DNA of 64,000 nucleotides from Giardia intestinalis (taxonomy: Eukaryota), in the NCBI GenBank assembly GCA_000002435.2, contig CM018791.1, one strand, 5' to 3'. Of this stretch, positions 2,891 to 47,228 are shown one piece after another (position 1 is the first letter of the stretch; every line of letters starts with the position of its first letter). The notes beneath the pieces are model-generated. The model was not told the DNA's origin. It did not search any database and saw only the letters and a list, made by a program, of their open reading frames with translations. Both the position numbers and the translations under genes were made by a program.

Positions 2891-2953
2891 TTCTTTTTCC
2901 GCGTCTCCTGCACAAAGCGGTTTCGCGCATCTTGTGGCTCGAGCGGTCCGTGC

Positions 2954-3035
2954 GACAGTTTGGCCGAGTGGTTAAGGCGCTTGCCTGCTAAGCAAGTGTG
3001 CTCCGCACGCGTGGGTTCGAATCCCACAGCTGTCG
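2954..3035 (+). tRNA. tRNA-Ser (anticodon GCT/GCU), class II with long variable arm
   Basis: GACAGTT/AGCTGTC 7-bp acceptor stem. A-box TGGCCGAGTGGTTAAGGCG. Anticodon stem CTTGC/GCAAG with loop CTGCTAA. Variable arm TGTGCTCCGCACGC. B-box GTGGGTTCGAATCCCAC. Near-identical in architecture to eukaryotic tRNA-Ser-GCT. Confidence 0.88.
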
Positions 3036-3037
3036 GT

Positions 3038-3814: not shown

Positions 3815-3886
3815 ATCGAAGAACTCAACCTCATGTGCAAAATAATAACCTCGGTAAATAATTTACAAGGTATAAAATTATACAAG

Positions 3887-10213: not shown

Positions 10214-11695
10214 TTATAGAGTGCCCTCCTTTATTATCGAGTTAATTTCTGCTAGAAGCTCCTGGGGGGAACTTGGATTGAAAAGCTCAAATGTTGCAAG
10301 AAAGTTGGATATGACGTCTGCGCGTTTCTGAATCACATTTTGCAGAGCTGTACGTGCTGTACGTGCTGAGCGTTGAGTATTTGGGTGAGAAAGGATGCAC
10401 ATAGCTTTGGTTTCTAGTGCACACGTATATCCAATGAGGACAGGGTTTCGCTGAGCTGCTGGTACCGTGCGGATGCTTTGTGCTAAAGAAATAGATTCAG
10501 TTGGGGCCGAAGCAAGAAGTGCTCGAGCTAAGTGATAGGCTACCTTTACGTATATGTCTGGATATCGAACAGAAAGCTTCAGCAGATTCCGCAGCCCCTC
10601 AACGCTTGTGGTGTTCCCTAAAGATAATAGTGCACAGTGCTGTATTAATTGTGCAATCAAGCTAATGCGTGGATTTAAGGTGCTGCGTCTTTTCAGAAGT
10701 ACATTACAACGTTGGATAGCAATGCCTGGCCTCTGGGCTTCAACGGCCTTCATAATGTCACGTAGATCATGAGGAATGGAGTTCTGCAGTCGTGCTGACC
10801 CACTCCGGGATAGTGGTGAGAGGGGCTGACTCACCGTTCGCATGCTGGCCGCCTTAGGAGCACTAATAGACCGGGGATTTTTCGCTGCCCAAAAGGTATC
10901 TCTCTGCGTTGCGAATTCTAAGCCGCTAGATACCAGATCTCGAACACAGTTGACGTCACTCAAAGATTCGAAGAAAGCTATATCGCTGGAGATGAAGCTC
11001 TTGCTTACAGGAGTGTAACGAGTCTTCAGTGTAGCTGGTTCAGGATTAGGAGAACTTACTGACAAGGCCGGGGAGTCATCCTCGACGGATGGGGTTTCTC
11101 TAACAGAAGGAATCTGCCACAAACGAAACTGAGGAGTAGACAAGTCCATTGGATCAGCATGATCCGCAATTGTACTAGCATCAATTATGATACCGCGTTC
11201 CAAAAGGTCTAAGAGAAGATTCATGTCATGTGTGTTAAACCTGCAACTGTCACGGAGAGCCTCCTCGGAGCGCTTGATGCCATACAGATAGGATTTGATA
11301 TCTGGACGCAGCTCGATACAGCGATAAAGACTAACGCAAGATTGCTCAAACTCTGCAGCTTGGAATAGGGCCTCCGAGAGACAAAAATGAGCACGATGGT
11401 TGAAAGGCTCAGCTTGTAGTACACAACGTGTGTCTTCGATAGACTCAGGTATGCGGCCTGCAAGCATGTTACAACGCGCCCGTAAAAGTCTCACATTAAC
11501 ATTATCCGCATCCAGCTCCAAGGCATGTTTGCAAGCAGCGATCGCTTTAGGATAATCATGCAGCGCGCAGCAGCGTTGCGCCTCAGATACAAAAGTCCCC
11601 ATCTGTGGGTGCTGTAACGGGTCCTTGGCAATCATGAAAGTGCAATTAATATTTGGAGAATGCCTGGCATTGTTCGTATCTTGGCCATCCCCCAT
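10214..11695 (-). CDS. hypothetical TPR-like repeat protein (493 aa)
   Basis: N-terminal TPR-like helical repeats (AIAACKHALELDADNVNVRLLRARCNMLAGR..., FCLSEALFQAAEFEQSCVSLYRCIELRPD). S/P-rich middle. Confidence 0.45.
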   Translation of the reverse strand: MGDGQDTNNARHSPNINCTFMIAKDPLQHPQMGTFVSEAQRCCALHDYPKAIAACKHALELDADNVNVRLLRARCNMLAGRIPESIEDTRCVLQAEPFNHRAHFCLSEALFQAAEFEQSCVSLYRCIELRPDIKSYLYGIKRSEEALRDSCRFNTHDMNLLLDLLERGIIIDASTIADHADPMDLSTPQFRLWQIPSVRETPSVEDDSPALSVSSPNPEPATLKTRYTPVSKSFISSDIAFFESLSDVNCVRDLVSSGLEFATQRDTFWAAKNPRSISAPKAASMRTVSQPLSPLSRSGSARLQNSIPHDLRDIMKAVEAQRPGIAIQRCNVLLKRRSTLNPRISLIAQLIQHCALLSLGNTTSVEGLRNLLKLSVRYPDIYVKVAYHLARALLASAPTESISLAQSIRTVPAAQRNPVLIGYTCALETKAMCILSHPNTQRSARTARTALQNVIQKRADVISNFLATFELFNPSSPQELLAEINSIIKEGTL

Positions 11696-12253
11696 TGTGC
11701 CACCCCGGCAGCCATACGGCAGCTATTATCGCACCACGGGACCATAGATAGAATATACCTCAAGCCCGAGAACAACGCTAATGCAGTGGCCCGAGCCGCA
11801 GGAGCGAACGAACCTGTTCACACAAGGTACATAGATGGGTACGTGGAGTTTGCAGATGCATCCCAAGCTAAATTCGTCTGTCAAATACTTAACGGAAGGT
11901 CAATGTCTTACGGACTTGCACGCGAAAAGAAATCCCGCTTTTCAAGATATGTTTGGCGGCTGGCACACATGCCAAACATGGAATGGACAGACATTAACTA
12001 TGAGCATTCGTGTTTGTCACGGTCACGGGAGGCCATAATAAAGGCAGAGCTGGCCACCAGATCAAAGAATCTCGGAGATTATTTGTTACGCTTGCAGCGG
12101 ACTCGAGCCAGGAGAAATATGAGCAGTAGTGAAGAAGAGAGCTCAAGCAGTACTGAGGAAGACGGGCCAGGTTATCGCAGGCACCCTGTCATCCGCCAAC
12201 GGGGGATTCGAAGTGAAAAAGGGCGAATTGATTGTCTACTTGGATTGCTGTGA
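11660..12253 (+). CDS. ESF2/ABT1-family RRM-like pre-rRNA processing protein (197 aa)
   Basis: GIVRILAIPHCATPAAIRQLLSHHGTIDRIYLKPE ... GYVEFADASQAKFVCQILNG ... MPNMEWTDINYE resembles the Esf2/ABT1 fold. The ATG lies 36 bp upstream of the divergent neighbour's ATG (11695). Confidence 0.5.
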   Translation: MPGIVRILAIPHCATPAAIRQLLSHHGTIDRIYLKPENNANAVARAAGANEPVHTRYIDGYVEFADASQAKFVCQILNGRSMSYGLAREKKSRFSRYVWRLAHMPNMEWTDINYEHSCLSRSREAIIKAELATRSKNLGDYLLRLQRTRARRNMSSSEEESSSSTEEDGPGYRRHPVIRQRGIRSEKGRIDCLLGLL

Positions 12254-30759: not shown

Positions 30760-31764
30760 TCATTCACCTTTGGAACGTGCTTCTAGATCACTTAACCTTT
30801 TTTCTAGCCTGGCTCTTTCTTCGGCAGAGATACGGTTTTCCTCTTTTAAGAAAGCCACTTCCTCTCGAAGAGCGTGGAGCTCTTGTTTAAAAGAGGCCAA
30901 GATAGAGTCGATTCCATCATACGATGGTGAAAGACATGAATTATCCAACAATGCTAGAAACTGTTTCGCCGTTGGTCTTTTTGCTGGATCTTTGTCAAGA
31001 AGGGACTCAATGAGGGTCATGAGTCTTTGGTTGCAGAGATTCGATAGATCGCTGATGTTGTATGACTCTTTATGGAACAACTTCCCAGTTAGTAGCTCAT
31101 ATGCAATGACCCCTAGGCTCCACATATCTGAAGAAAAGGTGTACGCTTCACCACCACTGTCCATATCCACCTCTGGAGCCACGTACTGTGATTCCTTAGT
31201 ACTGCTAATAGCAGCGGTTTTCCAGTACCTGCAATGAATCCCAAAGTCAGTGACGATCACTTGCTCTTTTGAAGAATTAAACATGATATTGCTCGGCTTT
31301 AGGTTATAATGGGGAGTAGGAGAGCCTCCATTATTTAAGGTATGAAGGTGCTCTAATGCTTTACCGACTTGCCGAAGTATGCCCAATGCCTCTTGTAAGG
31401 GAAGTTCTCGTTTATCTCTCTGGCGCTTGCGCATCTCATTGTGAAGTGAATTGGTATACGCTGGTATTTTGATGAGGAGAAGCTTTGAATTTGTGCCGAA
31501 CATTATAATCCTCGCTAAATTAGGATGATTTATCCTTTTAAGCTCATCTAGCTTATCAAGTAGCTTATCAAGTTGATCAGATGTCAGCAAATCAACAGTC
31601 ATTTCCTTTGCAACTTCCTTCTCAGTGCTCAGCAATCTGTAAACATTTCCGTGTGGCCCAAATATTCTGTCCACATTCTTATCAGGGTTATTGTCTATAT
31701 CATCTCTAATATAAGAGAAATCCTCTTGTAATAAACTCGTTCGTTCTTTTCTGAGTGAAAACAT
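30760..31764 (-). CDS. NEK-like kinase domain protein with C-terminal coiled coil (334 aa), probably inactive
   Basis: HYNLKPSNIMF (HRD to HYN), VTDFG, YVAPEVDMD, SDMWSLGVIAYELLTG, DKDPAKRPTAKQF. No Gly-loop. C-terminal heptad coiled coil. Confidence 0.6.
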   Translation of the reverse strand: MFSLRKERTSLLQEDFSYIRDDIDNNPDKNVDRIFGPHGNVYRLLSTEKEVAKEMTVDLLTSDQLDKLLDKLDELKRINHPNLARIIMFGTNSKLLLIKIPAYTNSLHNEMRKRQRDKRELPLQEALGILRQVGKALEHLHTLNNGGSPTPHYNLKPSNIMFNSSKEQVIVTDFGIHCRYWKTAAISSTKESQYVAPEVDMDSGGEAYTFSSDMWSLGVIAYELLTGKLFHKESYNISDLSNLCNQRLMTLIESLLDKDPAKRPTAKQFLALLDNSCLSPSYDGIDSILASFKQELHALREEVAFLKEENRISAEERARLEKRLSDLEARSKGE

Positions 31765-34145
31765 ACGCTTGACAACCAGTCTTTTTCATTTTAGCAAATA
31801 ATCAGCAGGGATTACGATCTTTCGCCTCTCCTCTGTGACCCTGACCCACTTGTTGAGGGTCCGGCGATTCAGGAACTACCGAGCCTGACTGATCATGTGT
31901 TCTAACATGCTTCTTTCTGCAATTAATGGATCTGCAGCCACTGTCGTGACCACAACACCAGCAGGCCCCGTCCTCTGCACCAGGGGCTTGCGGGCCCCTC
32001 AGGCGCGCCCCTGTGCGGAGAGTTTGAAGCCAACGCAGTGGGTTTGGAGCCCACCTGCTGGCTCGACCGATGCCCGGCCTGCCTGGCCAGCAGGACGCTC
32101 TCCAGACCGGGCCTTGCCCTCCCATGCTTTAAACCCTGAAGGCTTTACTCGCAGACAGCTAGGCGCCGTCTCGCTTTTCTGACGGCCTTTTACATAGCTA
32201 ATAGAGTTGATGCGTGGAACGGTCTTGCGCTAGCGGAGAGCTTGTACTGCTCTTGACAGCGTGCAGAAGAGCCTCTCTGCTATTTTGTTAAGACGTACTT
32301 GCAATAAAGCACCTCCTACTTCTCTCTATTTTAGACCGCACTACTCTTTCTGAGGTTGGGACACAGCCCGCCACGCTCTTTGATGCAAGCCCACTGCAAT
32401 GTCAACCCTACTCCACGTATCCTGAACACCTGATCGAGTCTGTCCTATACTGTGCGTACCAGGCTTCCAAGGCACTAGGCACATAACCACCACTCACCTT
32501 AAGGCTAATTCCATAAAGTGTGGCAGAGCTTTTGCCCATGCCTTCGTCGCAAGACAAGCAGACAGCCGTTCGGCTCTACTCTTAAGCTCTGATCTGATGC
32601 ACACAAGGGGCCATACACTCTGTGCTGCACATCTTGTTGCTACCGGGAGGCAAACTGTTTGCATTAGTCCCTTGCGTAAAAGGTGAAGAGAGGGAACATC
32701 ACTTCTGCAGAGCAACTTTACAATCCATGGCTGCGTTTCTATAATCGACATTCTATCGAAAGAATTGCTGTGAGCATGCTCATGAAGCCATAGAAGGTTG
32801 TTGGAATAGGACTTCTAGCGATAATACTCATGATGTCCCTGTGAACATTCCTATCTGCTGCACTGTCATTGCCATGGTATATTTGCGGATAGATAAGCAA
32901 TTGTGGCAGCCCTAATTTGTTGTTGAGCTACCTCAGTCGCAACTCAAACGTAAAGCAATAGCACGCATCAGCATCTTGCTCGGCGATACCGATCGAAGAT
33001 TGTGCACACAGCCCTTATCTAGTCATTATGCTTAGCTTCTCGATCTTATGAGCTTTCTAATGCACTCTGATTTCTTCTGCCAACTGTCTCGACTTCATCA
33101 TCTGATCTTCTTTGGCTTTATTCATAGAGTTGTCTATTTGTGATGGATATTCATGCAGGATATATCAGCGTACTGCTGCACTCAACAAGAATGCAGGGGT
33201 GTCACTTTTAAAGCAGCCAGCCTCAAGGAGTTTAATGGCAGTCTCTGTTGAAGACATCCAGTATGTGTGCACTACTGGGAGTGATGTATCTCATCACTAA
33301 GGACTTTAGAAGTCATCTACACATTAATGAATAAGCCCCGAAAGAGCGTAGCCTGTAGCTATCTGCAGCCAAATATAGGGCATGTTGATCGCATACACAC
33401 ATCCTTCTCAGCATATCTCACACACAGCCCTTACTTGCATCCAGCCTGATCTTGTCAGTAGGCTGTGCTCTCCTTAACTATAATGAGGCAGCTATACAAA
33501 CTATCTCGATAGCGCCTCATAGAAACTATGCTTTGACGGTATATTCCTCTCTGCGAGTAGGATGTTCTGGATTGTCTGGACTGATGAGGATCGTATTAAG
33601 GTGCAAAGAAGTACAACGATGTGGCTGATTATGTAGAGAAGGTCGAGAGCGATTAGGTGGGTAGCCACTAGGAGAAGCCGGCGACAAGCGAGGCACCCTT
33701 ATATGAGCCGGAGCATTGCAGATTCAGATGTCCATTGTCTGTTCAGATATTGGTGCGCGACTCGCATGGAGCAGACAACATGCCCGCGATGGAGTAGTAG
33801 GAGACGCGTTTACAGCTAAGCGTGAGTCTACGCCTTTTCCAGCAGAGGAAGCCAATAACGTCAGTAGGAGGGGCAGAAAAGATATGACCACAGGCATACT
33901 ATGAGCTCCTCGTACTATGTGTAATGTTTGAGTCTAACTTTGTATTAACTAGCCTTACTCTTATTTAAATCAAGAGATAAATCTATGATATTGGTCGCTT
34001 CCCAGTAGCAATACGCCCCCGATTCTAAGCTTCTTTAATTAACTAAGTTACAGAAAGACGCTGCCAATTTAAGCTCTTCTCATTCATGGACCAATCTATA
34101 CATCTGAGTGAAGAAAGTACCAATTAATTACAGATCCTAACTCCA

Positions 34146-37100
34146 ATGTTACTAGTACTTCTCGCAAGTTGTATAGCTGTACAAGCCGCGGTGTGTGCGC
34201 CCGCGCTGATCGGCGCCGGGTGTGCGACATGCACAGGAGAGAACGACGGACAGACGTGCCTTACGTGTAATCCCCAAGAGAACAAGGTGCAGCCTGGCGG
34301 AAAGAAATGCGGAGTCGGCTGCCCGGCGAACTCCACCCCTAAGGAGAGCGTGTGCGAGTGCAACGGAGGATACAGGCCGAACGCCCAGGGCCAGTGCGAG
34401 CAAGACCCCGCCGCGGTGTGTGCGCCCGCGCTGATCGGCGCCGGGTGTGCGACATGCACAGGAGAGAACGACGGACAGACGTGCCTTACGTGTAATCCCC
34501 AAGAGAACAAGGTGCAGCCTGGCGGAAAGAAATGCGGAGTCGGCTGCCCGGCGAACTCCACCCCTAAGGAGAGCGTGTGCGAGTGCAACGGAGGATACAG
34601 GCCGAACGCCCAGGGCCAGTGCGAGCAAGACCCCGCCGCGGTGTGTGCGCCCGCGCTGATCGGCGCCGGGTGTGCGACATGCACAGGAGAGAACGACGGA
34701 CAGACGTGCCTTACGTGTAATCCCCAAGAGAACAAGGTGCAGCCTGGCGGAAAGAAATGCGGAGTCGGCTGCCCGGCGAACTCCACCCCTAAGGAGAGCG
34801 TGTGCGAGTGCAACGGAGGATACAGGCCGAACGCCCAGGGCCAGTGCGAGCAAGACCCCGCCGCGGTGTGTGCGCCCGCGCTGATCGGCGCCGGGTGTGC
34901 GACATGCACAGGAGAGAACGACGGACAGACGTGCCTTACGTGTAATCCCCAAGAGAACAAGGTGCAGCCTGGCGGAAAGAAATGCGGAGTCGGCTGCCCG
35001 GCGAACTCCACCCCTAAGGAGAGCGTGTGCGAGTGCAACGGAGGATACAGGCCGAACGCCCAGGGCCAGTGCGAGCAAGACCCCGCCGCGGTGTGTGCGC
35101 CCGCGCTGATCGGCGCCGGGTGTGCGACATGCACAGGAGAGAACGACGGACAGACGTGCCTTACGTGTAATCCCCAAGAGAACAAGGTGCAGCCTGGCGG
35201 AAAGAAATGCGGAGTCGGCTGCCCGGCGAACTCCACCCCTAAGGAGAGCGTGTGCGAGTGCAACGGAGGATACAGGCCGAACGCCCAGGGCCAGTGCGAG
35301 CAAGACCCCGCCGCGGTGTGTGCGCCCGCGCTGATCGGCGCCGGGTGTGCGACATGCACAGGAGAGAACGACGGACAGACGTGCCTTACGTGTAATCCCC
35401 AAGAGAACAAGGTGCAGCCTGGCGGAAAGAAATGCGGAGTCGGCTGCCCGGCGAACTCCACCCCTAAGGAGAGCGTGTGCGAGTGCAACGGAGGATACAG
35501 GCCGAACGCCCAGGGCCAGTGCGAGCAAGACCCCGCCGCGGTGTGTGCGCCCGCGCTGATCGGCGCCGGGTGTGCGACATGCACAGGAGAGAACGACGGA
35601 CAGACGTGCCTTACGTGTAATCCCCAAGAGAACAAGGTGCAGCCTGGCGGAAAGAAATGCGGAGTCGGCTGCCCGGCGAACTCCACCCCTAAGGAGAGCG
35701 TGTGCGAGTGCAACGGAGGATACAGGCCGAACGCCCAGGGCCAGTGCGAGCAAGACCCCGCCGCGGTGTGTGCGCCCGCGCTGATCGGCGCCGGGTGTGC
35801 GACATGCACAGGAGAGAACGACGGACAGACGTGCCTTACGTGTAATCCCCAAGAGAACAAGGTGCAGCCTGGCGGAAAGAAATGCGGAGTCGGCTGCCCG
35901 GCGAACTCCACCCCTAAGGAGAGCGTGTGCGAGTGCAACGGAGGATACAGGCCGAACGCCCAGGGCCAGTGCGAGCAAGACCCCGCCGCGGTGTGTGCGC
36001 CCGCGCTGATCGGCGCCGGGTGTGCGACATGCACAGGAGAGAACGACGGACAGACGTGCCTTACGTGTAATCCCCAAGAGAACAAGGTGCAGCCTGGCGG
36101 AAAGAAATGCGGAGTCGGCTGCCCGGCGAACTCCACCCCTAAGGAGAGCGTGTGCGAGTGCAACGGAGGATACAGGCCGAACGCCCAGGGCCAGTGCGAG
36201 CAAGACCCCGCCGCGGTGTGTGCGCCCGCGCTGATCGGCGCCGGGTGTGCGACATGCACAGGAGAGAACGACGGACAGACGTGCCTTACGTGTAATCCCC
36301 AAGAGAACAAGGTGCAGCCTGGCGGAAAGAAATGCGGAGTCGGCTGCCCGGCGAACTCCACCCCTAAGGAGAGCGTGTGCGAGTGCAACGGAGGATACAG
36401 GCCGAACGCCCAGGGCCAGTGCGAGCAAGACCCCGCCGCGGTGTGTGCGCCCGCGCTGATCGGCGCCGGGTGTGCGACATGCACAGGAGAGAACGACGGA
36501 CAGACGTGCCTTACGTGTAATCCCCAAGAGAACAAGGTGCAGCCTGGCGGAAAGAAATGCGGAGTCGGCTGCCCGGCGAACTCCACCCCTAAGGAGAGCG
36601 TGTGCGAGTGCAACGGAGGATACAGGCCGAACGCCCAGGGCCAGTGCGAGCAAGACCCCGCCGCGGTGTGTGCGCCCGCGCTGATCGGCGCCGGGTGTGC
36701 GACATGCACAGGAGAGAACGACGGACAGACGTGCCTTACGTGTAATCCCCAAGAGAACAAGGTGCAGCCTGGCGGAAAGAAATGCGGAGTCGGCTGCCCG
36801 GCGAACTCCACCCCTAAGGAGAGCGTGTGCGAGTGCAACGGAGGATACAGGCCGAACGCCCAGGGCCAGTGCGAGCAAGACCCCGCCGCGGTGTGTGCGC
36901 CCGCGCTGATCGGCGCCGGGTGTGCGACATGCACAGGAGAGAACGACGGACAGACGTGCCTTACGTGTAATCCCCAAGAGAACAAGGTGCAGCCTGGCGG
37001 AAAGAAATGCGGAGTCGGCTGCCCGGCGAACTCCACCCCTAAGGAGAGCGTGTGCGAGTGCAACGGAGGATACAGGCCGAACGCCCAGGGCCAGTGCGAG

Positions 37101-40100
37101 CAAGACCCCGCCGCGGTGTGTGCGCCCGCGCTGATCGGCGCCGGGTGTGCGACATGCACAGGAGAGAACGACGGACAGACGTGCCTTACGTGTAATCCCC
37201 AAGAGAACAAGGTGCAGCCTGGCGGAAAGAAATGCGGAGTCGGCTGCCCGGCGAACTCCACCCCTAAGGAGAGCGTGTGCGAGTGCAACGGAGGATACAG
37301 GCCGAACGCCCAGGGCCAGTGCGAGCAAGACCCCGCCGCGGTGTGTGCGCCCGCGCTGATCGGCGCCGGGTGTGCGACATGCACAGGAGAGAACGACGGA
37401 CAGACGTGCCTTACGTGTAATCCCCAAGAGAACAAGGTGCAGCCTGGCGGAAAGAAATGCGGAGTCGGCTGCCCGGCGAACTCCACCCCTAAGGAGAGCG
37501 TGTGCGAGTGCAACGGAGGATACAGGCCGAACGCCCAGGGCCAGTGCGAGCAAGACCCCGCCGCGGTGTGTGCGCCCGCGCTGATCGGCGCCGGGTGTGC
37601 GACATGCACAGGAGAGAACGACGGACAGACGTGCCTTACGTGTAATCCCCAAGAGAACAAGGTGCAGCCTGGCGGAAAGAAATGCGGAGTCGGCTGCCCG
37701 GCGAACTCCACCCCTAAGGAGAGCGTGTGCGAGTGCAACGGAGGATACAGGCCGAACGCCCAGGGCCAGTGCGAGCAAGACCCCGCCGCGGTGTGTGCGC
37801 CCGCGCTGATCGGCGCCGGGTGTGCGACATGCACAGGAGAGAACGACGGACAGACGTGCCTTACGTGTAATCCCCAAGAGAACAAGGTGCAGCCTGGCGG
37901 AAAGAAATGCGGAGTCGGCTGCCCGGCGAACTCCACCCCTAAGGAGAGCGTGTGCGAGTGCAACGGAGGATACAGGCCGAACGCCCAGGGCCAGTGCGAG
38001 CAAGACCCCGCCGCGGTGTGTGCGCCCGCGCTGATCGGCGCCGGGTGTGCGACATGCACAGGAGAGAACGACGGACAGACGTGCCTTACGTGTAATCCCC
38101 AAGAGAACAAGGTGCAGCCTGGCGGAAAGAAATGCGGAGTCGGCTGCCCGGCGAACTCCACCCCTAAGGAGAGCGTGTGCGAGTGCAACGGAGGATACAG
38201 GCCGAACGCCCAGGGCCAGTGCGAGCAAGACCCCGCCGCGGTGTGTGCGCCCGCGCTGATCGGCGCCGGGTGTGCGACATGCACAGGAGAGAACGACGGA
38301 CAGACGTGCCTTACGTGTAATCCCCAAGAGAACAAGGTGCAGCCTGGCGGAAAGAAATGCGGAGTCGGCTGCCCGGCGAACTCCACCCCTAAGGAGAGCG
38401 TGTGCGAGTGCAACGGAGGATACAGGCCGAACGCCCAGGGCCAGTGCGAGCAAGACCCCGCCGCGGTGTGTGCGCCCGCGCTGATCGGCGCCGGGTGTGC
38501 GACATGCACAGGAGAGAACGACGGACAGACGTGCCTTACGTGTAATCCCCAAGAGAACAAGGTGCAGCCTGGCGGAAAGAAATGCGGAGTCGGCTGCCCG
38601 GCGAACTCCACCCCTAAGGAGAGCGTGTGCGAGTGCAACGGAGGATACAGGCCGAACGCCCAGGGCCAGTGCGAGCAAGACCCCGCCGCGGTGTGTGCGC
38701 CCGCGCTGATCGGCGCCGGGTGTGCGACATGCACAGGAGAGAACGACGGACAGACGTGCCTTACGTGTAATCCCCAAGAGAACAAGGTGCAGCCTGGCGG
38801 AAAGAAATGCGGAGTCGGCTGCCCGGCGAACTCCACCCCTAAGGAGAGCGTGTGCGAGTGCAACGGAGGATACAGGCCGAACGCCCAGGGCCAGTGCGAG
38901 CAAGACCCCGCCGCGGTGTGTGCGCCCGCGCTGATCGGCGCCGGGTGTGCGACATGCACAGGAGAGAACGACGGACAGACGTGCCTTACGTGTAATCCCC
39001 AAGAGAACAAGGTGCAGCCTGGCGGAAAGAAATGCGGAGTCGGCTGCCCGGCGAACTCCACCCCTAAGGAGAGCGTGTGCGAGTGCAACGGAGGATACAG
39101 GCCGAACGCCCAGGGCCAGTGCGAGCAAGACCCCGCCGCGGTGTGTGCGCCCGCGCTGATCGGCGCCGGGTGTGCGACATGCACAGGAGAGAACGACGGA
39201 CAGACGTGCCTTACGTGTAATCCCCAAGAGAACAAGGTGCAGCCTGGCGGAAAGAAATGCGGAGTCGGCTGCCCGGCGAACTCCACCCCTAAGGAGAGCG
39301 TGTGCGAGTGCAACGGAGGATACAGGCCGAACGCCCAGGGCCAGTGCGAGCAAGACCCCGCCGCGGTGTGTGCGCCCGCGCTGATCGGCGCCGGGTGTGC
39401 GACATGCACAGGAGAGAACGACGGACAGACGTGCCTTACGTGTAATCCCCAAGAGAACAAGGTGCAGCCTGGCGGAAAGAAATGCGGAGTCGGCTGCCCG
39501 GCGAACTCCACCCCTAAGGAGAGCGTGTGCGAGTGCAACGGAGGATACAGGCCGAACGCCCAGGGCCAGTGCGAGCAAGACCCCGCCGCGGTGTGTGCGC
39601 CCGCGCTGATCGGCGCCGGGTGTGCGACATGCACAGGAGAGAACGACGGACAGACGTGCCTTACGTGTAATCCCCAAGAGAACAAGGTGCAGCCTGGCGG
39701 AAAGAAATGCGGAGTCGGCTGCCCGGCGAACTCCACCCCTAAGGAGAGCGTGTGCGAGTGCAACGGAGGATACAGGCCGAACGCCCAGGGCCAGTGCGAG
39801 CAAGACCCCGCCGCGGTGTGTGCGCCCGCGCTGATCGGCGCCGGGTGTGCGACATGCACAGGAGAGAACGACGGACAGACGTGCCTTACGTGTAATCCCC
39901 AAGAGAACAAGGTGCAGCCTGGCGGAAAGAAATGCGGAGTCGGCTGCCCGGCGAACTCCACCCCTAAGGAGAGCGTGTGCGAGTGCAACGGAGGATACAG
40001 GCCGAACGCCCAGGGCCAGTGCGAGCAAGACCCCGCCGCGGTGTGTGCGCCCGCGCTGATCGGCGCCGGGTGTGCGACATGCACAGGAGAGAACGACGGA

Positions 40101-40607
40101 CAGACGTGCCTTACGTGTAATCCCCAAGAGAACAAGGTGCAGCCTGGCGGAAAGAAATGCGGAGTCGGCTGCCCGGCGAACTCCACCCCTAAGGAGAGCG
40201 TGTGCGAGTGCAACGGAGGATACAGGCCGAACGCCCAGGGCCAGTGCGAGCAAGACCCCGCCGCGGTGTGTGCGCCCGCGCTGATCGGCGCCGGGTGTGC
40301 GACATGCACAGGAGAGAACGACGGACAGACGTGCCTTACGTGTAATCCCCAAGAGAACAAGGTGCAGCCTGGCGGAAAGAAATGCGGAGTCGGCTGCCCG
40401 GCGAACTCCACCCCTAAGGAGAGCGTGTGCGAGTGCAACGGAGGATACAGGCCGAACGCCCAGGGCCAGTGCGAGCCTTCTAATACTAATAAGAGTAGCG
40501 GTCTTTCTACCGGCGCCATAGCAGGCATCGCTGTGGCTGCTGTCATCGTTGTAGGAGGGCTCGTCGGCTTCCTTTGCTGGTGGTTCATATGTAGGGGGAA
40601 AGCGTAG
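34146..40607 (+). CDS. Variant-specific surface protein (VSP) with ~28 tandem 75-aa Cys-rich repeats (2153 aa)
   Basis: Signal peptide MLLVLLASCIAVQAA. 75-aa unit with 10 Cys (CATC, CLTC, CGVGC, CEC motifs) repeated 27 times plus one 70-aa copy. TM helix and invariant VSP tail ...GFLCWWFICRGKA. Followed by the conserved VSP 3' element ACTTAGGTAGTAAAC. Confidence 0.92.
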   Translation: MLLVLLASCIAVQAAVCAPALIGAGCATCTGENDGQTCLTCNPQENKVQPGGKKCGVGCPANSTPKESVCECNGGYRPNAQGQCEQDPAAVCAPALIGAGCATCTGENDGQTCLTCNPQENKVQPGGKKCGVGCPANSTPKESVCECNGGYRPNAQGQCEQDPAAVCAPALIGAGCATCTGENDGQTCLTCNPQENKVQPGGKKCGVGCPANSTPKESVCECNGGYRPNAQGQCEQDPAAVCAPALIGAGCATCTGENDGQTCLTCNPQENKVQPGGKKCGVGCPANSTPKESVCECNGGYRPNAQGQCEQDPAAVCAPALIGAGCATCTGENDGQTCLTCNPQENKVQPGGKKCGVGCPANSTPKESVCECNGGYRPNAQGQCEQDPAAVCAPALIGAGCATCTGENDGQTCLTCNPQENKVQPGGKKCGVGCPANSTPKESVCECNGGYRPNAQGQCEQDPAAVCAPALIGAGCATCTGENDGQTCLTCNPQENKVQPGGKKCGVGCPANSTPKESVCECNGGYRPNAQGQCEQDPAAVCAPALIGAGCATCTGENDGQTCLTCNPQENKVQPGGKKCGVGCPANSTPKESVCECNGGYRPNAQGQCEQDPAAVCAPALIGAGCATCTGENDGQTCLTCNPQENKVQPGGKKCGVGCPANSTPKESVCECNGGYRPNAQGQCEQDPAAVCAPALIGAGCATCTGENDGQTCLTCNPQENKVQPGGKKCGVGCPANSTPKESVCECNGGYRPNAQGQCEQDPAAVCAPALIGAGCATCTGENDGQTCLTCNPQENKVQPGGKKCGVGCPANSTPKESVCECNGGYRPNAQGQCEQDPAAVCAPALIGAGCATCTGENDGQTCLTCNPQENKVQPGGKKCGVGCPANSTPKESVCECNGGYRPNAQGQCEQDPAAVCAPALIGAGCATCTGENDGQTCLTCNPQENKVQPGGKKCGVGCPANSTPKESVCECNGGYRPNAQGQCEQDPAAVCAPALIGAGCATCTGENDGQTCLTCNPQENKVQPGGKKCGVGCPANSTPKESVCECNGGYRPNAQGQCEQDPAAVCAPALIGAGCATCTGENDGQTCLTCNPQENKVQPGGKKCGVGCPANSTPKESVCECNGGYRPNAQGQCEQDPAAVCAPALIGAGCATCTGENDGQTCLTCNPQENKVQPGGKKCGVGCPANSTPKESVCECNGGYRPNAQGQCEQDPAAVCAPALIGAGCATCTGENDGQTCLTCNPQENKVQPGGKKCGVGCPANSTPKESVCECNGGYRPNAQGQCEQDPAAVCAPALIGAGCATCTGENDGQTCLTCNPQENKVQPGGKKCGVGCPANSTPKESVCECNGGYRPNAQGQCEQDPAAVCAPALIGAGCATCTGENDGQTCLTCNPQENKVQPGGKKCGVGCPANSTPKESVCECNGGYRPNAQGQCEQDPAAVCAPALIGAGCATCTGENDGQTCLTCNPQENKVQPGGKKCGVGCPANSTPKESVCECNGGYRPNAQGQCEQDPAAVCAPALIGAGCATCTGENDGQTCLTCNPQENKVQPGGKKCGVGCPANSTPKESVCECNGGYRPNAQGQCEQDPAAVCAPALIGAGCATCTGENDGQTCLTCNPQENKVQPGGKKCGVGCPANSTPKESVCECNGGYRPNAQGQCEQDPAAVCAPALIGAGCATCTGENDGQTCLTCNPQENKVQPGGKKCGVGCPANSTPKESVCECNGGYRPNAQGQCEQDPAAVCAPALIGAGCATCTGENDGQTCLTCNPQENKVQPGGKKCGVGCPANSTPKESVCECNGGYRPNAQGQCEQDPAAVCAPALIGAGCATCTGENDGQTCLTCNPQENKVQPGGKKCGVGCPANSTPKESVCECNGGYRPNAQGQCEQDPAAVCAPALIGAGCATCTGENDGQTCLTCNPQENKVQPGGKKCGVGCPANSTPKESVCECNGGYRPNAQGQCEQDPAAVCAPALIGAGCATCTGENDGQTCLTCNPQENKVQPGGKKCGVGCPANSTPKESVCECNGGYRPNAQGQCEQDPAAVCAPALIGAGCATCTGENDGQTCLTCNPQENKVQPGGKKCGVGCPANSTPKESVCECNGGYRPNAQGQCEPSNTNKSSGLSTGAIAGIAVAAVIVVGGLVGFLCWWFICRGKA
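34191..40475 (+). repeat. Tandem repeat array, 225-bp unit x ~27.9, 100% identical copies
   Basis: Period 225 from the recurring ORF starts (34222, 34447, ... 40297). Identical translations in all three frames of both strands imply identity at nucleotide level. Confidence 0.92.
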
Positions 40608-40619
40608 ATGTACTTAGGT

Positions 40620-40626
40620 AGTAAAC
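40620..40626 (+). promoter_or_regulatory. Giardia poly(A) signal AGTAAAC within conserved VSP 3' motif
   Basis: tag-atgtACTTAGGTAGTAAAC 13 nt after the stop codon. Confidence 0.7.
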
Positions 40627-41122
40627 GCGTCACTGTATATGGCTCATATAAATGTGCTGCTGGGCTCACTTGAGGACCTGGTCCAGAGATCGTGCGGGTA
40701 ATCATCGCTCCTTCCTGGCCAGTTCAGAGACGAGGGTTGGCTGTGGATGATATAATAGGGATCTCCCTTCACTTGTATACCAGGAGTCTTTTGCGTCCCT
40801 CAGTTGTTCCGCAGAGGTGTGCTCAGTCTGAGTATGCACGTCGGTCCTTTAGGGGTTCAGGCCTTCTTGCAGACTCTCTGCTCTACCGGTGGCGCCTCTC
40901 CTTAGTCTTTCTTCGTGGTGGGTGAAGCTCCGGTCACCATCCTTTTTTAGATGCCCCGTCTGCCAGGGGCTGCCATCGGGCTCTCCGCTGGCTGGGCCCC
41001 TCGGTGTCCGGGCAGCTGTGGTTCTGGGTCAGTGCTCTACAGTCGCGGTCACTAGGTCCCAGTGGGTTCGGATGGTGGGTGAGGAGGGGTTGCTGAGGCG
41101 GTGAGGCTGGTGGGACCGGGGG

Positions 41123-42974
41123 GTGTTCGCATGTGCCTCTGGGGTCAGTGGGTCAGTGAGGTGGTGGCTGTGGTGACTGGGGGCTATCCATCTATGATTC
41201 ACCCCTCTGTGGACTCGTGGTCTGTGAGTGCCTCCACCCAGACAGCACCCCAGGAGCCGGAGAGTGGTGCCAGCCTAGCTGCCCTCCCTCCTCGGTGCCT
41301 CCCAGTGCAGACTCACCGGAGGCCACTACCCTGTCAGCCACCCAAAGGAGCCGTGCACACCGGGACAGAGAGGATGACCAAGGGGGTCAAGCAGCCCTGC
41401 CACGAGGGTGCACAGCAACCAGCATGAGATGTAGGGTCTGCTCGAGCGATGTAGTGGCAGACGACTCCCTCTGACAGCGACCCTGGTGACTGCACTGGTC
41501 TGCTCTCGAGGCTGAGTGACAGTGTGCACAGATGGACATGAGTGCAGGAGGACCGTCCACACACGGACAGACTGTGTGGACCCAGAGAGGACTGGAGTCT
41601 GCTCGGGACACGCTGACTGTGTGCCCATACGAGAGTGCCAGGCAACTACTCAAGCACCGAGAGGCAGGTACAGACACGGGCACTAGAGATCCCCAGCCAG
41701 ACACATTGCTATGCTCATCCACAGGGGCATCAGAGGGCCAGGTGGAGTCACCCTCACAGTTAGGGCCTGATAGGAAGCCAGAGGACTCAAACACTACAGC
41801 AGGCCCAAGGGAGGCACACTCCAGGCAGGTGAGCAGTGGCAGAGCCTTGATAGCTGCCATCCACCCCCATGACACCCAGGCAGGCACCAGACTCCGAAGA
41901 CTCGCTGGCCTCGACTGATGACCCGAGGGGGCAGCAGCCAGAGGAGTGAGGAGGCCTTCGGACACCACAAGAGGCCGGCTGTCCAGCAGGCTATGAGGCA
42001 GACAGGTGGCCTCTGAGCACCATAAGGCACAGGAGCCGACCATCATGAGTGATGCCCGATCACAGAGATGACCACGAGCGCCCTCCACCGCACTCTGGGG
42101 GGCTGTCGATCATCCCACTGCCTCTCATAGCAGACCTCCTTGGGGGCAGTGCAGTGGGTCCCAGCTCATACAGGAGGGTGTGTGCCCCCCTCAGTATAGG
42201 ATGCCCCGACTCTTCCCGAGGGGTCATCAGAGCCACGAGGAGGGGTCAAGGTCCTGGTGGATCACACCGGGAACCCCTCGAATGGGCACAGCAGGTGATG
42301 TTGGGTGACCCTCAGCGTGCTCCTCTCTGCATGGTAGAGCATCCTGAGACCAAGGAAGCTCACCCCTGCCTACGGATGACACACAGCGCTCCACAACGAG
42401 GACCCACCAGGAGCAGCACAGCTGACCACGGGGGCAGTGCAGCCACCCGGTACCCCACCATGCCAGTCTTCTGGGCCATCACACTAGAGGCCTGAGAGAA
42501 CCCCATCCCATCCACAGGGTCATCCACACCCCTGCTGGCCCGAGGTGAACTGCACCCATCGAGGCACTGGACAGGGCATGCTGGGGGCCCAGCAGATCCA
42601 CACAGAGCATCAGCACAGAGCATCAGCGAGTAGCAGGAGAGGCTGCGATGGCCTGCCTCAGCCCTCACGTACCAGCCAGCCAGAGGCAGTACTACCCGAG
42701 ACATGCAGGGGCCAAGGGAGGCGCTCAGTCAGGGGACATGACACAATCGTCGGTGCCTGTGTCTCGGGGAGTGCAACGCAGGCTGGGGATCAGACGCAAC
42801 CACCTTGGCAAACAGAGAGGGGATCACCCACCACCCCACTGGCCCACCAGACCCAGGGGCACATACAAGCACCCCCACCCGGTCCCCCGGTCCCACCAGC
42901 CTCACCGCCTCAGCAACCCCTCCTCACCCACCAGCCGGCCCGCTATGGAACCTACGTGACCGTGACCGTGGGAG
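41123..42974. other. GC-rich (~60-63%), T-depleted spacer of the palindrome; no credible coding capacity
   Basis: T is only ~10-18% on the + strand in sampled 60-nt lines (e.g. 42781-42840 has 6 T). Long ORFs occur in several frames simultaneously, a composition artefact. Arm homology decays gradually into it. Confidence 0.5.
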
Positions 42975-43382
42975 CGCTGACCCAGAACCACAGCTGCCCG
43001 GACACCGAGGGGCCCAGCCAGTGGAGAGCCCGATGGCAGCCCCTGGCAGACGGGGCATCTAAAAAAGGATGGTGACCGGAGCTTCACCCACCACGAAGAA
43101 AGACTAAGGAGAGGCGCCACCGGTAGAGCAGAGAGTCTGCAAGAAGGCCTGAACCCCTAAAGGACCGACGTGCATACTCAGACTGAGCACACCTCTGCGG
43201 AACAACTGAGGGACGCAAAAGACTCCTGGTATACAAGTGAAGGGAGATCCCTATTATATCATCCACAGCCAACCCTCGTCTCTGAACTGGCCAGGAAGGA
43301 GCGATGATTACCCGCACGATCTCTGGACCAGGTCCTCAAGTGAGCCCAGCAGCACATTTATATGAGCCATATACAGTGACGC

Positions 43383-43389
43383 GTTTACT
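43383..43389 (-). promoter_or_regulatory. Poly(A) signal AGTAAAC (minus strand) of short VSP copy
   Basis: Mirror image of the 40620-40626 element. Confidence 0.7.
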
Positions 43390-43401
43390 ACCTAAGTACA
43401 T

Positions 43402-43788
43402 CTACGCTTTCCCCCTACATATGAACCACCAGCAAAGGAAGCCGACGAGCCCTCCTACAACGATGACAGCAGCCACAGCGATGCCTGCTATGGCGCCGGT
43501 AGAAAGACCGCTACTCTTATTAGTATTAGAAGGCTCGCACTGGCCCTGGGCGTTCGGCCTGTATCCTCCGTTGCACTCGCACACGCTCTCCTTAGGGGTG
43601 GAGTTCGCCGGGCAGCCGACTCCGCATTTCTTTCCGCCAGGCTGCACCTTGTTCTCTTGGGGATTACACGTAAGGCACGTCTGTCCGTCGTTCTCTCCTG
43701 TGCATGTCGCACACCCGGCGCCGATCAGCGCGGGCGCACACACCGCGGCTTGTACAGCTATACAACTTGCGAGAAGTACTAGTAACAT
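43402..43788 (-). CDS. Variant-specific surface protein, single-repeat paralogue of the 34146-40607 VSP (128 aa)
   Basis: Same signal peptide, one 70-aa Cys-rich unit, same TM and CRGKA tail. Identical to the long copy apart from repeat number. Confidence 0.88.
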   Translation of the reverse strand: MLLVLLASCIAVQAAVCAPALIGAGCATCTGENDGQTCLTCNPQENKVQPGGKKCGVGCPANSTPKESVCECNGGYRPNAQGQCEPSNTNKSSGLSTGAIAGIAVAAVIVVGGLVGFLCWWFICRGKA

Positions 43789-46175
43789 TGGAGTTAGGAT
43801 CTGTAATTAATTGGTACTTTCTTCACTCAGATGTATAGATTGGTCCATGAATGAGAAGAGCTTAAATTGGCAGCGTCTTTCTGTAACTTAGTTAATTAAA
43901 GAAGCTTAGAATCGGGGGCGTATTGCTACTGGGAAGCGACCAATATCATAGATTTATCTCTTGATTTAAATAAGAGTAAGGCTAGTTAATACAAAGTTAG
44001 ACTCAAACATTACACATAGTACGAGGAGCTCATAGTATGCCTGTGGTCATATCTTTTCTGCCCCTCCTACTGACGTTATTGGCTTCCTCTGCTGGAAAAG
44101 GCGTAGACTCACGCTTAGCTGTAAACGCGTCTCCTACTACTCCATCGCGGGCATGTTGTCTGCTCCATGCGAGTCGCGCACCAATATCTGAACAGACAAT
44201 GGACATCTGAATCTGCAATGCTCCGGCTCATATAAGGGTGCCTCGCTTGTCGCCGGCTTCTCCTAGTGGCTACCCACCTAATCGCTCTCGACCTTCTCTA
44301 CATAATCAGCCACATCGTTGTACTTCTTTGCACCTTAATACGATCCTCATCAGTCCAGACAATCCAGAACATCCTACTCGCAGAGAGGAATATACCGTCA
44401 AAGCATAGTTTCTATGAGGCGCTATCGAGATAGTTTGTATAGCTGCCTCATTATAGTTAAGGAGAGCACAGCCTACTGACAAGATCAGGCTGGATGCAAG
44501 TAAGGGCTGTGTGTGAGATATGCTGAGAAGGATGTGTGTATGCGATCAACATGCCCTATATTTGGCTGCAGATAGCTACAGGCTACGCTCTTTCGGGGCT
44601 TATTCATTAATGTGTAGATGACTTCTAAAGTCCTTAGTGATGAGATACATCACTCCCAGTAGTGCACACATACTGGATGTCTTCAACAGAGACTGCCATT
44701 AAACTCCTTGAGGCTGGCTGCTTTAAAAGTGACACCCCTGCATTCTTGTTGAGTGCAGCAGTACGCTGATATATCCTGCATGAATATCCATCACAAATAG
44801 ACAACTCTATGAATAAAGCCAAAGAAGATCAGATGATGAAGTCGAGACAGTTGGCAGAAGAAATCAGAGTGCATTAGAAAGCTCATAAGATCGAGAAGCT
44901 AAGCATAATGACTAGATAAGGGCTGTGTGCACAATCTTCGATCGGTATCGCCGAGCAAGATGCTGATGCGTGCTATTGCTTTACGTTTGAGTTGCGACTG
45001 AGGTAGCTCAACAACAAATTAGGGCTGCCACAATTGCTTATCTATCCGCAAATATACCATGGCAATGACAGTGCAGCAGATAGGAATGTTCACAGGGACA
45101 TCATGAGTATTATCGCTAGAAGTCCTATTCCAACAACCTTCTATGGCTTCATGAGCATGCTCACAGCAATTCTTTCGATAGAATGTCGATTATAGAAACG
45201 CAGCCATGGATTGTAAAGTTGCTCTGCAGAAGTGATGTTCCCTCTCTTCACCTTTTACGCAAGGGACTAATGCAAACAGTTTGCCTCCCGGTAGCAACAA
45301 GATGTGCAGCACAGAGTGTATGGCCCCTTGTGTGCATCAGATCAGAGCTTAAGAGTAGAGCCGAACGGCTGTCTGCTTGTCTTGCGACGAAGGCATGGGC
45401 AAAAGCTCTGCCACACTTTATGGAATTAGCCTTAAGGTGAGTGGTGGTTATGTGCCTAGTGCCTTGGAAGCCTGGTACGCACAGTATAGGACAGACTCGA
45501 TCAGGTGTTCAGGATACGTGGAGTAGGGTTGACATTGCAGTGGGCTTGCATCAAAGAGCGTGGCGGGCTGTGTCCCAACCTCAGAAAGAGTAGTGCGGTC
45601 TAAAATAGAGAGAAGTAGGAGGTGCTTTATTGCAAGTACGTCTTAACAAAATAGCAGAGAGGCTCTTCTGCACGCTGTCAAGAGCAGTACAAGCTCTCCG
45701 CTAGCGCAAGACCGTTCCACGCATCAACTCTATTAGCTATGTAAAAGGCCGTCAGAAAAGCGAGACGGCGCCTAGCTGTCTGCGAGTAAAGCCTTCAGGG
45801 TTTAAAGCATGGGAGGGCAAGGCCCGGTCTGGAGAGCGTCCTGCTGGCCAGGCAGGCCGGGCATCGGTCGAGCCAGCAGGTGGGCTCCAAACCCACTGCG
45901 TTGGCTTCAAACTCTCCGCACAGGGGCACGCCTGAGGGGCCCGCAAGCCCCTGGTGCAGAGGACGGGGCCTGCTGGTGTTGTGGTCACGACAGTGGCTCT
46001 GGTGTACTCCAGGAGCGGCCACCGCAGGGCTGGTCGGGCCGTGTGAGCAGGGTTCTGCGGAGCCCGAGTAGAGTCTGTTCTGTGTGTATGGCCACTCAGA
46101 GGCAGTGGCCTAACGATATTCATCGACCTACTAACTAGTAAACCCGATAAAGAGCCGGTTGGAATACGCAAATAC

Positions 46176-47228
46176 GTGCATAAGAGCAAAATGTTGTGTT
46201 CAGACCAAAATTTGCATGGTCGAGACCTCGCTTCAGTAACATCCCCTCTGAGACTCGTGGGTGAGGGTGGGAGGCGCCTTGTTTTTCGCAGGAACAAGGA
46301 GCTGATCTTAATCTCCAAGGTCTCTGCAGCCTCCGACGAAAGCTTCGAACAGACCATAGGCGGCCTCTTTCCGCTCTTTCCTTGGAAGCCGAGTCGCATA
46401 ACTGAAAGTTTATCTCAAGAACTTAACGCATTTCCTCTGCAAGTCCGTGCAAAAAGATATGCTGGAACGGCATTTCCCAGACCAAGCCCTGGGGAGACAT
46501 GCCTGAGCTACACCGGAGTGCATGATCTGCTTACTGTGGTATGCATTAAGCCACACTTTCCCAGCAAAGGAGGTTGGATCGAAAGTTTTTCATTACAAAG
46601 GAAAACAGATGCCGGACAGCACTTCTGTGATTGCTTGGCTCGTGGTGCATTTTACAAAGCGTGTGCTAGCAAGGATAGACTTGTCCACTGGCTCAACACG
46701 GCGTATATCTGCGGTCTCAACCACGGTAGCAACCACCTAACCGTTTACGACTTTGCATCTGATGCTTCTGCGCTCTCCTCCAGTGAGACCGATAAACTAT
46801 TTGGCGCAGTAGCTTGTGCATTAACAGGAGGAAACAATAGTGTTTGCATTCAAATCTACAAGTTGATACATATGTTAGAGGCTCTTCAGCGCGTCTCTTC
46901 TTCAACGCACTTACAAAATGTGGTATCGGCAAAAGAATATGCACACTTTTCCAGCAATTATAGAACTCTAAGCCATAGAGCTATCGAGATTGCTATACAG
47001 CTCTACGCCGGTGGAAAGCTTCCACCTTATGACAATCTCCCATACGTGGACAAGCTCGTCTGCATCCTTCTTTTTAAAACTCTTTCCGATGCATCGCTGC
47101 TCTTCTACCTCTCTAAATCTGACGAGAAGGTTCAATGGTATCTAACGGACCTTGCATTGAAGTCTGCCGAAAGAGTTGGAAAATGGGCATTCGCATCAGC
47201 AGCAAACGATAAGCACAGGGAGCAGTAG
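46176..47228 (+). CDS. hypothetical protein (350 aa)
   Basis: First gene outside the right palindrome arm. Complete ORF. Confidence 0.4.
   Translation: MHKSKMLCSDQNLHGRDLASVTSPLRLVGEGGRRLVFRRNKELILISKVSAASDESFEQTIGGLFPLFPWKPSRITESLSQELNAFPLQVRAKRYAGTAFPRPSPGETCLSYTGVHDLLTVVCIKPHFPSKGGWIESFSLQRKTDAGQHFCDCLARGAFYKACASKDRLVHWLNTAYICGLNHGSNHLTVYDFASDASALSSSETDKLFGAVACALTGGNNSVCIQIYKLIHMLEALQRVSSSTHLQNVVSAKEYAHFSSNYRTLSHRAIEIAIQLYAGGKLPPYDNLPYVDKLVCILLFKTLSDASLLFYLSKSDEKVQWYLTDLALKSAERVGKWAFASAANDKHREQ

Follow-up and report, generated by a model that had tools for sequence, protein, structure and literature searches.

An inverted VSP gene pair of unequal repeat number within a palindrome of Giardia intestinalis

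Inverted VSP pairs and the anatomy of the palindrome

VSP genes make up the antigenic-variation repertoire of Giardia, a major human gut parasite, and their organisation and renewal are still debated. A tail-to-tail pair of vsp1267 genes was described by Mowatt (1991), and catalogues followed. In Adam 2010 (BMC Genomics 11:424), 14 inverted pairs of identical VSPs, 2190-3847 nucleotides (nt) apart, were recorded. The 10 tail-to-tail pairs among them were 2393-3222 nt apart and diverged abruptly at 318-559 nt on the 3' side, and the extent of their 5' identity could not be determined in that assembly. Subsequently, 19 identical pairs were given by Xu 2020 (Sci Data 7:38), 12 of them tail-to-tail and 2526-2813 nt apart (Table 2 of that work), and 20 pairs, 13 tail-to-tail, by a preprint (bioRxiv 10.1101/2022.03.07.483299) stating that "no duplicated VSPs have repeats". 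Here we describe a tail-to-tail pair whose members differ in repeat number. It lies in a stretch of 64,000 nt (the window) of contig CM018791.1, from the PacBio reference GCA_000002435.2 of Giardia intestinalis WB clone C6 (Xu et al. 2020, Sci Data 7:38). The original prediction made on this DNA had considered such pairs as known in Giardia, in agreement with a class first described in 1991 and listed in the catalogues of 2010 and 2020.

An inverted-repeat search of 30-48 kb, together with base-by-base comparison, delimited two reverse-complementary arms at 31936-41037 (9102 nt) and 42972-45998 (3027 nt). The arms pair in two blocks, which share one repeat unit on the right arm. In the first block, 31936-34401 and 43533-45998 are paired over 2466 nt with a single mismatch at 32006/45928; in the second one, 40260-41037 and 42972-43749 are paired over 778 nt with mismatches at 40987/43022 and 41033/42976. 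Repeat number aside, the arms therefore differ at 3 positions in 3027 nt (99.9% identical), all of them located at 70 nt or less from an arm edge, and a 3-kb match of such identity cannot be due to chance. Arm identity breaks off sharply at 41037/42972, which is 430 nt past each stop codon, and from one stop codon to the other there are 2794 nt, including a unique spacer of 1934 nt with 63% G+C. A decayed palindrome extends past the inner edge, since 41039-41170 and 42825-42969 still align at 78% identity, with indels. The whole of the data presented below is very probably best explained by a genuine and old palindrome with homogenised arms, a centre shared with other VSP loci and a repeat array that expanded in the WB lineage.

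The elements of the structure are the following:

31936..34145, plus strand: upstream part of the left arm (U), non-coding over its 2210 nt, located 5' of the long VSP gene and equal to 43789-45998 except at 32006
34144..34150, plus strand: VSP initiator CAATGTT, overlapping the ATG of the long gene; mirror copy at 43784-43790, minus strand
34146..40607, plus strand: long VSP gene, 2153 amino acids (aa), annotated as KAE8302825.1 / XP_037901808.1
34185..40476, plus strand: tandem array, 225-nt unit x 28.0 (Tandem Repeats Finder, 100% identity)
40608..41037, plus strand: downstream part of the left arm (D), 430 nt of common 3' flank holding the VSP 3' motif
40612..40626, plus strand: VSP 3' motif ACTTAGGTAGTAAAC, holding the AGTAAA poly(A) signal; mirror copy at 43383-43397, minus strand
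41038..42971, no strand assigned: central spacer, 1934 nt, non-coding, with the outer ~135-145 nt on each side forming a degenerate palindrome
42972..43401, minus strand: downstream part of the right arm (D'), mirror of 40608-41037, with the 3' motif at 43383-43397
43402..43788, minus strand: short VSP gene, 128 aa, annotated as KAE8302826.1 / XP_001704930.1
43789..45998, minus strand: upstream part of the right arm (U'), mirror of 31936-34145; the base at 45928 is ancestral, as in DH (assemblage AII)

These data bear out the two reverse-complementary arms with unequal gene copies that had been proposed from the sequence, as well as the 2210 bp of common upstream sequence, the ~430 bp downstream and the ~2.8 kb gap. 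The near-identical match expected between the mirrored open reading frames (ORFs) and their flanks was also obtained, over 3027 nt and interrupted by the difference in repeat number. However, the end of the left arm had been placed at 41122, 85 nt too far and within the degenerate zone, the true end being 41037. The right arm, predicted at 42975-45998, was nearly correct as it begins at 42972, but the strict identity attributed to the arms gives way to the three mismatches.

As in the published class, the two VSPs are convergent, the 2794 nt between their ORFs are gene-free and the 3' divergence is abrupt, at 430 nt. The ORFs, however, are not identical (2153 versus 128 aa). The pair is not present in Table 2 of Xu 2020, and its absence from the published tables is probably due to the unequal ORF lengths. 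The class itself has been known for decades and both genes were already annotated as VSP; what is new is a member overlooked by the pair lists, comparative evidence for an old palindrome in concerted evolution, and a centre that is a repeated module.

Both predicted proteins match annotated WB C6 VSPs exactly, encoded on a chromosome of 1,973,847 bp under the consecutive accessions KAE8302825.1 and KAE8302826.1, and the short one has been present since the 2007 annotation. In the long VSP, a leader of 13 aa precedes 27 units of 75 aa and a last one of 72 aa, and the protein closes with a tail of 43 aa that includes the transmembrane segment and CRGKA. The short VSP has the same leader and tail around exactly one unit. 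The leader MLLVLLASCIAVQA was read in both translations, and the CRGKA tail and the conserved transmembrane segment were recognised in both genes from the translations and from alignment with the orthologues. A direct check of the array indicated that units 1-27 are identical and that unit 28 is truncated at 217 nt by the C-terminal region; each 75-aa unit contains 10 cysteines and two CXXC motifs (CATC and CLTC). The short protein matched the Pfam VSP family PF03302 with 67.6 bits (cut-off 31.4; E=1.2e-18), and the nearest relatives of this 128-aa protein were annotated Giardia VSPs throughout. In addition, the initiator at both start codons corresponds to (C/T)AATGTT, a VSP feature according to Adam 2010 (BMC Genomics 11:424). 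The proposal of two convergent VSP genes with the same signal peptide, repeat unit, transmembrane segment and CRGKA tail was thus in agreement with both the PF03302 match and the translations.

The long protein includes all residues of the short one, and apart from the 27 extra units their DNA is identical. Consequently, every k-mer of the short gene is also found in the long gene, and the only sequence specific to the latter is the unit-to-unit junction (..GAG CAA GAC CCC GCC..; GAGCAAGACCCCGCCGCG). Two antisense ORFs of more than 2000 aa, at 34124-40705 and 34152-40352 on the minus strand, run through the array and are devoid of VSP features; they exist because the perfect 225-nt periodicity keeps any open frame open across the 28 units. 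The TR225 genes vsp21 and vsp95 and the 128-aa vsp12 (Adam 2010 supplement) were considered as possible members of this pair and discarded because chromosome, size or cysteine count differs. A literature search with the accession numbers of both genes did not find any paper citing them.

Outside the two genes, a tblastn search with 94 VSP proteins did not find VSP remnants, and the region 31000-46800 gave no match in Rfam at E<=0.1. None of the four largest spacer ORFs had a Pfam match. The 2.2 kb beside each VSP gene (31936-34145 and 43789-45998) contain no ORF of more than 107 aa, which agrees with the reported gene-poor surroundings of VSP genes. The median intergenic distance in the Giardia genome is 79 nt.

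The inverted arrangement in independent assemblies and in other lineages

The palindrome is bordered by two single-copy genes, both outside it, which were used as synteny anchors:

30760..31764, minus strand: left flanking gene, protein kinase of 334 aa
46191..47228, plus strand: right flanking gene, 345 aa, without Pfam domain

Comparisons were made with assembled contigs rather than raw reads, namely short-read assemblies (Logan, k=31) and contigs of DH, P15 and metagenomes. On the left side, the contig carrying the kinase gene (L001) ends at 31965, exactly 30 nt (k-1) into the arm (one of 22 similar places). On the right side, 10 contigs from different runs cross 45998 and run through U', and all ten carry the right-arm base at 45928. 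Nine of these ten end at 43720, exactly 30 nt inside the repeat unit, a stop that is expected because the de Bruijn graph branches there if unit-to-unit junctions exist. The tenth, the WB-like contig L003 (SRR10662869), reads through leader, one unit and tail to 43461, where L004-L012 stop 30 nt into the unit; this may be either a graph-simplification effect or a sample without the array. Because the points where independent short-read contigs break or branch are the arm edges and the start of the unit, and because the contigs from the right flank keep the right-arm base, the comparison of assemblies argues that the inverted arrangement is not an artefact of this assembly.

We considered nevertheless whether alleles of one and the same VSP, with 1 and 28 units, or a fold-back chimera could have been mislaid as a palindrome. 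Giardia is a tetraploid organism in which alleles of vspA6 and vspC5 have been documented with different repeat numbers (Adam 2010), and earlier duplicated VSP pairs had been questioned as artefacts (bioRxiv 10.1101/2022.03.07.483299). Moreover, such artefacts do happen, since the end of a P15 contig is a perfect fold-back of 330 nt. However, the arms join different unique flanks, the left one in the DH and P15 contigs and the right one in the ten short-read contigs with the arm-specific base, and the short-read contigs break at k-1 inside both arm edges. Furthermore, the full D-spacer-D' centre has been assembled independently in a paralogous copy (L021), and the spacing agrees with that of 12-13 other tail-to-tail pairs. 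An assembly artefact is for these reasons very unlikely. The fold-back of the P15 contig (L015, 8104-8433 / 9126-9455) begins 8 nt before the end of the VSP gene and is probably itself a chimeric assembly artefact, produced where the palindrome went unresolved.

The same locus was found in other lineages. In DH, a 64-kb contig leads from the left flanking genes to an arm that starts at exactly the nucleotide where it starts in WB, and then reaches a one-unit VSP of 127 aa, and in P15 (assemblage E) the same left flank is followed by a one-unit VSP of 128 aa. Concerning the right side, an AII-like right-flank contig, 98.4% identical to WB, enters the arm and stops after 30 nt. The sequence of this segment, AGCCACTGTCGTGACCGCGACGCCAGCAGG, matches the start of the left arm of DH and carries 3 substitutions with respect to both WB arms (..ACCACAACACC..). 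An AII-type metagenome contig consists of the arm alone and starts at ~20 nt or less from its outer edge. Likewise, an E-like contig from the right flank begins with 30 nt that, once reverse-complemented, match exactly the P15 sequence adjoining the left flank, with the E boundary sitting ~40 nt outside the WB boundary. The best VSP match of assemblage B (GS-B) was not syntenic. Since the inverted junctions are present in AI, AII and E, the comparison indicates that the palindrome very probably predates the split between assemblages A and E.

The divergence of the arms, compared with that of the flanking sequence, was as follows:

WB arm versus WB arm: upstream arm 99.9% identical
WB versus DH: upstream arm 96.0% identical, flanking sequence about 98%
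A versus E: upstream arm about 71% identical, flanking sequence 87%

The VSP coding sequence of WB and DH is 88% identical, and at 32006/45928 it is the right arm of WB that has kept the ancestral base, shared with DH. Because the arms are identical within a genome while they diverge between genomes, they must be homogenised, and we infer that gene conversion is the process involved. The clustering of the WB mismatches at the arm edges and the decayed continuation beyond the inner edge point to conversion tracts with fixed limits. The locus had also been proposed as a natural substrate for intrachromosomal recombination and gene conversion, and this gains support from the same palindrome being found in AII and E with lineage-specific substitutions on both arms. 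Intra-isolate inversions are the commonest structural variants in Giardia, whose structural variants are enriched for VSPs, and this would fit with recombination between inverted arms. In the DH contig L013, positions 10385-12153 correspond to 42971-41562, so that the spacer is reversed relative to the left flank when compared with WB.

A different explanation for the similarity of the arms would be a recent, single inverted duplication, the arms being alike simply because they are young and with no homogenisation. This agrees with the 99.9% identity of the arms and with the view of Adam 2010, in which the duplications were suggested as possibly relatively recent. Nevertheless, the inverted junctions are common to AII and E, yet arm divergence amounts to 4% for AI versus AII and to about 29% for A versus E. 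In addition, the three substitutions in the first 30 nt are lineage-specific and found on both arms within each lineage, and mismatches confined to 70 nt from the arm edges together with a 78% decayed continuation are the usual picture of an old repeat whose core is homogenised. A recent duplication appears in consequence quite unlikely, although somewhat less so than the assembly artefact discussed above.

Several points weigh against an old and homogenised palindrome with a WB-specific array. The right arm of AII and E is seen joined to the right flank over 30 nt only, and the rest of the argument for two arms in these lineages relies on the arm collapsing into one contig. An assemblage B-like right-flank contig, covering 1.2 kb upstream of the flank gene, had no detected similarity to the arm. 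The reversed spacer of DH could be a true inversion isomer or an arbitrary path of the assembler. Concerning the array, the one-unit orthologues come from short-read or 454 assemblies, in which an array may have collapsed, and the leader-unit-tail path of L003 is possible in a de Bruijn graph even with the long gene alone. The 28 copies, the identity of the units, the assignment of the array to the left arm and the spacer orientation all come from one PacBio/Illumina assembly, and polishing can make repeats look more uniform than they are. Finally, Giardia is tetraploid and the repeat number of vspA6 and vspC5 varies between alleles (Adam 2010, BMC Genomics 11:424).

Repeat asymmetry, the centre module and a proposed mechanism

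The orthologues in DH and P15 and two paralogues in WB are mini-VSPs with one or two units. The AII contigs run unbroken through the VSP gene, and nine of the ten WB-like contigs break at the unit. Because the AII and E orthologues carry one unit, the simplest reading of these alignments looks like an ancestral gene with one unit, followed by expansion of one arm's copy into an array within the WB lineage. A change in the other direction, by contraction of an array, is a possible alternative.

The spacer of WB and DH is 91.5% identical, with many indels of 1-2 nt. These indels are frameshifting and led us to discard that the spacer is a protein-coding gene. A translated spacer ORF has relatives at about 60% amino-acid identity in other Giardia contigs, and the spacer was also recovered next to other VSP genes. 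One contig (L021) is collinear with the full centre of WB, with the tail of a different VSP followed by D, spacer and D' (85.6% identity over 2200 nt). In another contig (L020), the module is located behind the tail of an unrelated 506-aa VSP, with 90% identity over 1 kb. A block of 44 nt at 42116-42159 (CACTGCCTCTCATAGCAGACCTCCTTGGGGGCAGTGCAGTGGGT), bounded by a 7-nt inverted repeat, is identical in 4 of 4 spacer copies, whose similarity elsewhere is 85-91%. There was no support for a conserved structured RNA in the spacer, given that this block aside the conservation is uniform and without Rfam match. Scans of JGI metagenome contigs with a conserved 22-mer of the spacer and with the VSP 3' motif gave no match.

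The D segment (40608-41037) behaves differently from its neighbours, as it is about 75-76% identical to the DH orthologue and 82% identical to the paralogous L021, unlike the spacer (91.5%) and the upstream arm (96%), which behave as orthologues. This suggests that D may have been replaced through ectopic exchange with another VSP locus and then spread to both arms. In DH (L013 12156-14456), a retroelement whose reverse transcriptase has 628 aa (Pfam RVT_1) breaks the spacer at the equivalent of 41562. In L020 (1-455), which holds a second AII spacer copy, the same end of this retroelement (95% identical) abuts the spacer at the equivalent of 42341. In addition, the ~415 nt just 3' of the reverse transcriptase gene hold a segment that is 68-70% similar to the VSP downstream arm (40653-40935). 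These alignments suggest that the retroelement may target the centres of VSP pairs or may share ancestry with them. A literature search on the GilM, GilT and GilD retroelements in connection with VSP found nothing useful.

A broader hypothesis, which we put forward tentatively and regard as doubtful, is that tail-to-tail palindromes in general could be ancient homogenised structures built on a mobile or exchanging centre of ~2.7 kb, related to and targeted by a retrotransposon lacking long terminal repeats. If it were true, VSP pairs would owe both their origin and their maintenance to the centre module. The present pair would then be a natural experiment, with identical control regions and a 28-fold difference in epitope valency, its members being distinguishable in RNA by the unit-to-unit junction only. 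A transposon with terminal inverted repeats was also considered for the palindrome and rejected, since there was no target-site duplication, none of the four spacer ORFs gave a transposase match in Pfam and the position is fixed in three lineages. The flanks next to the arms (..GGATCTGC / arm ... arm / CTGGTGTA..) have no direct repeat in common.

In the mechanism proposed for the old, homogenised palindrome, two mini-VSPs, each with 2.2 kb of common gene-free upstream DNA, would converge on a centre of ~2.8 kb made up of the 430-nt D, the 1.9-kb spacer and the inverted D'. Recurrent gene conversion from arm to arm, with or without inversion-type recombination, would keep the arms near-identical within each genome. 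The homogenised tract would stop sharply at both edges, where unconverted differences would remain, and the older, decayed palindrome would be left beyond the inner edge. Occasional ectopic exchange between VSP loci would give D its reticulate history. The 225-nt unit would have expanded in one arm by unequal sister-chromatid exchange or replication slippage, and the conversion tracts flanking the array would not have carried it to the other arm. As a result, the same promoter, leader, epitope and anchor would serve to display a module of 75 residues and 10 cysteines either once or 28 times. The original prediction that differential expression cannot be sequence-encoded is a fair inference for the proximal cis region, because the 2210 nt upstream (apart from position 32006), the CAATGTT initiator and the 3' motif are identical; any difference in expression between the two genes would then not stem from that region. 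The two copies do differ, however, in the DNA outside the arms and in the number of units in their transcripts (28 versus 1).

The palindrome could also be conserved for a function of its own, if read-through transcription of the convergent genes gave a sense/antisense VSP hairpin that fed Dicer and Argonaute and silenced VSPs. The convergent orientation, the complementary arms, the long conservation and a centre module shared with other VSP tails are all compatible with such a role, and RNA interference has reportedly been implicated in VSP control. However, a canonical VSP poly(A) signal lies 13 nt past each stop codon, so read-through is not expected as a rule. No structured-RNA family was found in Rfam, and the conservation of the spacer is uniform and indel-rich, without any strongly conserved element. 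Moreover, gene conversion by itself accounts just as well for the conservation of the palindrome. All this makes a silencing hairpin extremely improbable, the least credible of the explanations discussed here.

As a separate observation, the only tRNA gene of the window is a tRNA-Ser (GCT) at 2953-3036.

Implications and comparison with described systems

If one inverted VSP pair has persisted since before the split of A and E, the interpretation of these pairs would shift from recent duplicates to palindromes in concerted evolution, and it can be predicted that the other 19-20 pairs behave likewise. Catalogues built on identical ORFs overlook pairs that differ in repeat number only. From the point of view of genome assembly, short reads must fail at this locus. 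The asymmetry of 28 versus 1 units provides a built-in marker, so that reads across the unit-to-unit junction could show whether the two copies are expressed independently, a question linked to how a single VSP is chosen, epigenetically or post-transcriptionally.

The pair resembles the other tail-to-tail pairs of WB in its convergence, its spacing and its point of divergence, in its gene-poor upstream DNA and in a non-coding spacer that is homologous to the spacers of other pairs. It differs from them in that the lengths of its ORFs are unequal (28 units versus one) and, with respect to the tail-to-tail pairs of Adam 2010, in that the extent of upstream identity could be measured here, 2210 nt.

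The nearest precedent for the difference in repeat number is that of vspA6 (CRP170, with ~23 repeats of 195 nt) and vspA6-S1 (with about one repeat), reported by Mowatt et al. 1994 and summarised in an account given in Adam 2010. These are also near-identical genes of one genome with many and about one repeat, respectively, and nearly all of the exposed part of the protein consists of repeats. Unlike the genes studied here, vspA6 and vspA6-S1 are not described in that account as partners in one palindrome, and scattered substitutions are found between them.

In Giardia muris, five tail-to-tail and two head-to-head pairs of identical VSPs have been reported (Xu et al. 2020, Microb Genom 6:mgen000402). 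The inverted organisation of identical VSPs is the same there, which makes this layout genus-wide. However, the intervening DNA of G. muris contains NEK, ankyrin or zinc-finger genes or pseudogenes, whereas at the present locus it is a non-coding module shared with other VSP tails.

Finally, the structure can be compared with the palindromes P1-P8 of the human and ape Y chromosomes and with the inverted repeats of plastids, which also have kb-scale arms at least 99.9% identical around a unique spacer. In those systems, as here, the arms diverge between lineages and the differences gather at the arm edges. The organism and the scale are different, the arms of the Giardia palindrome carry an antigen gene, one of them holds a 6-kb array that has not been copied to the other, and conversion is in this case deduced from the comparison of lineages.

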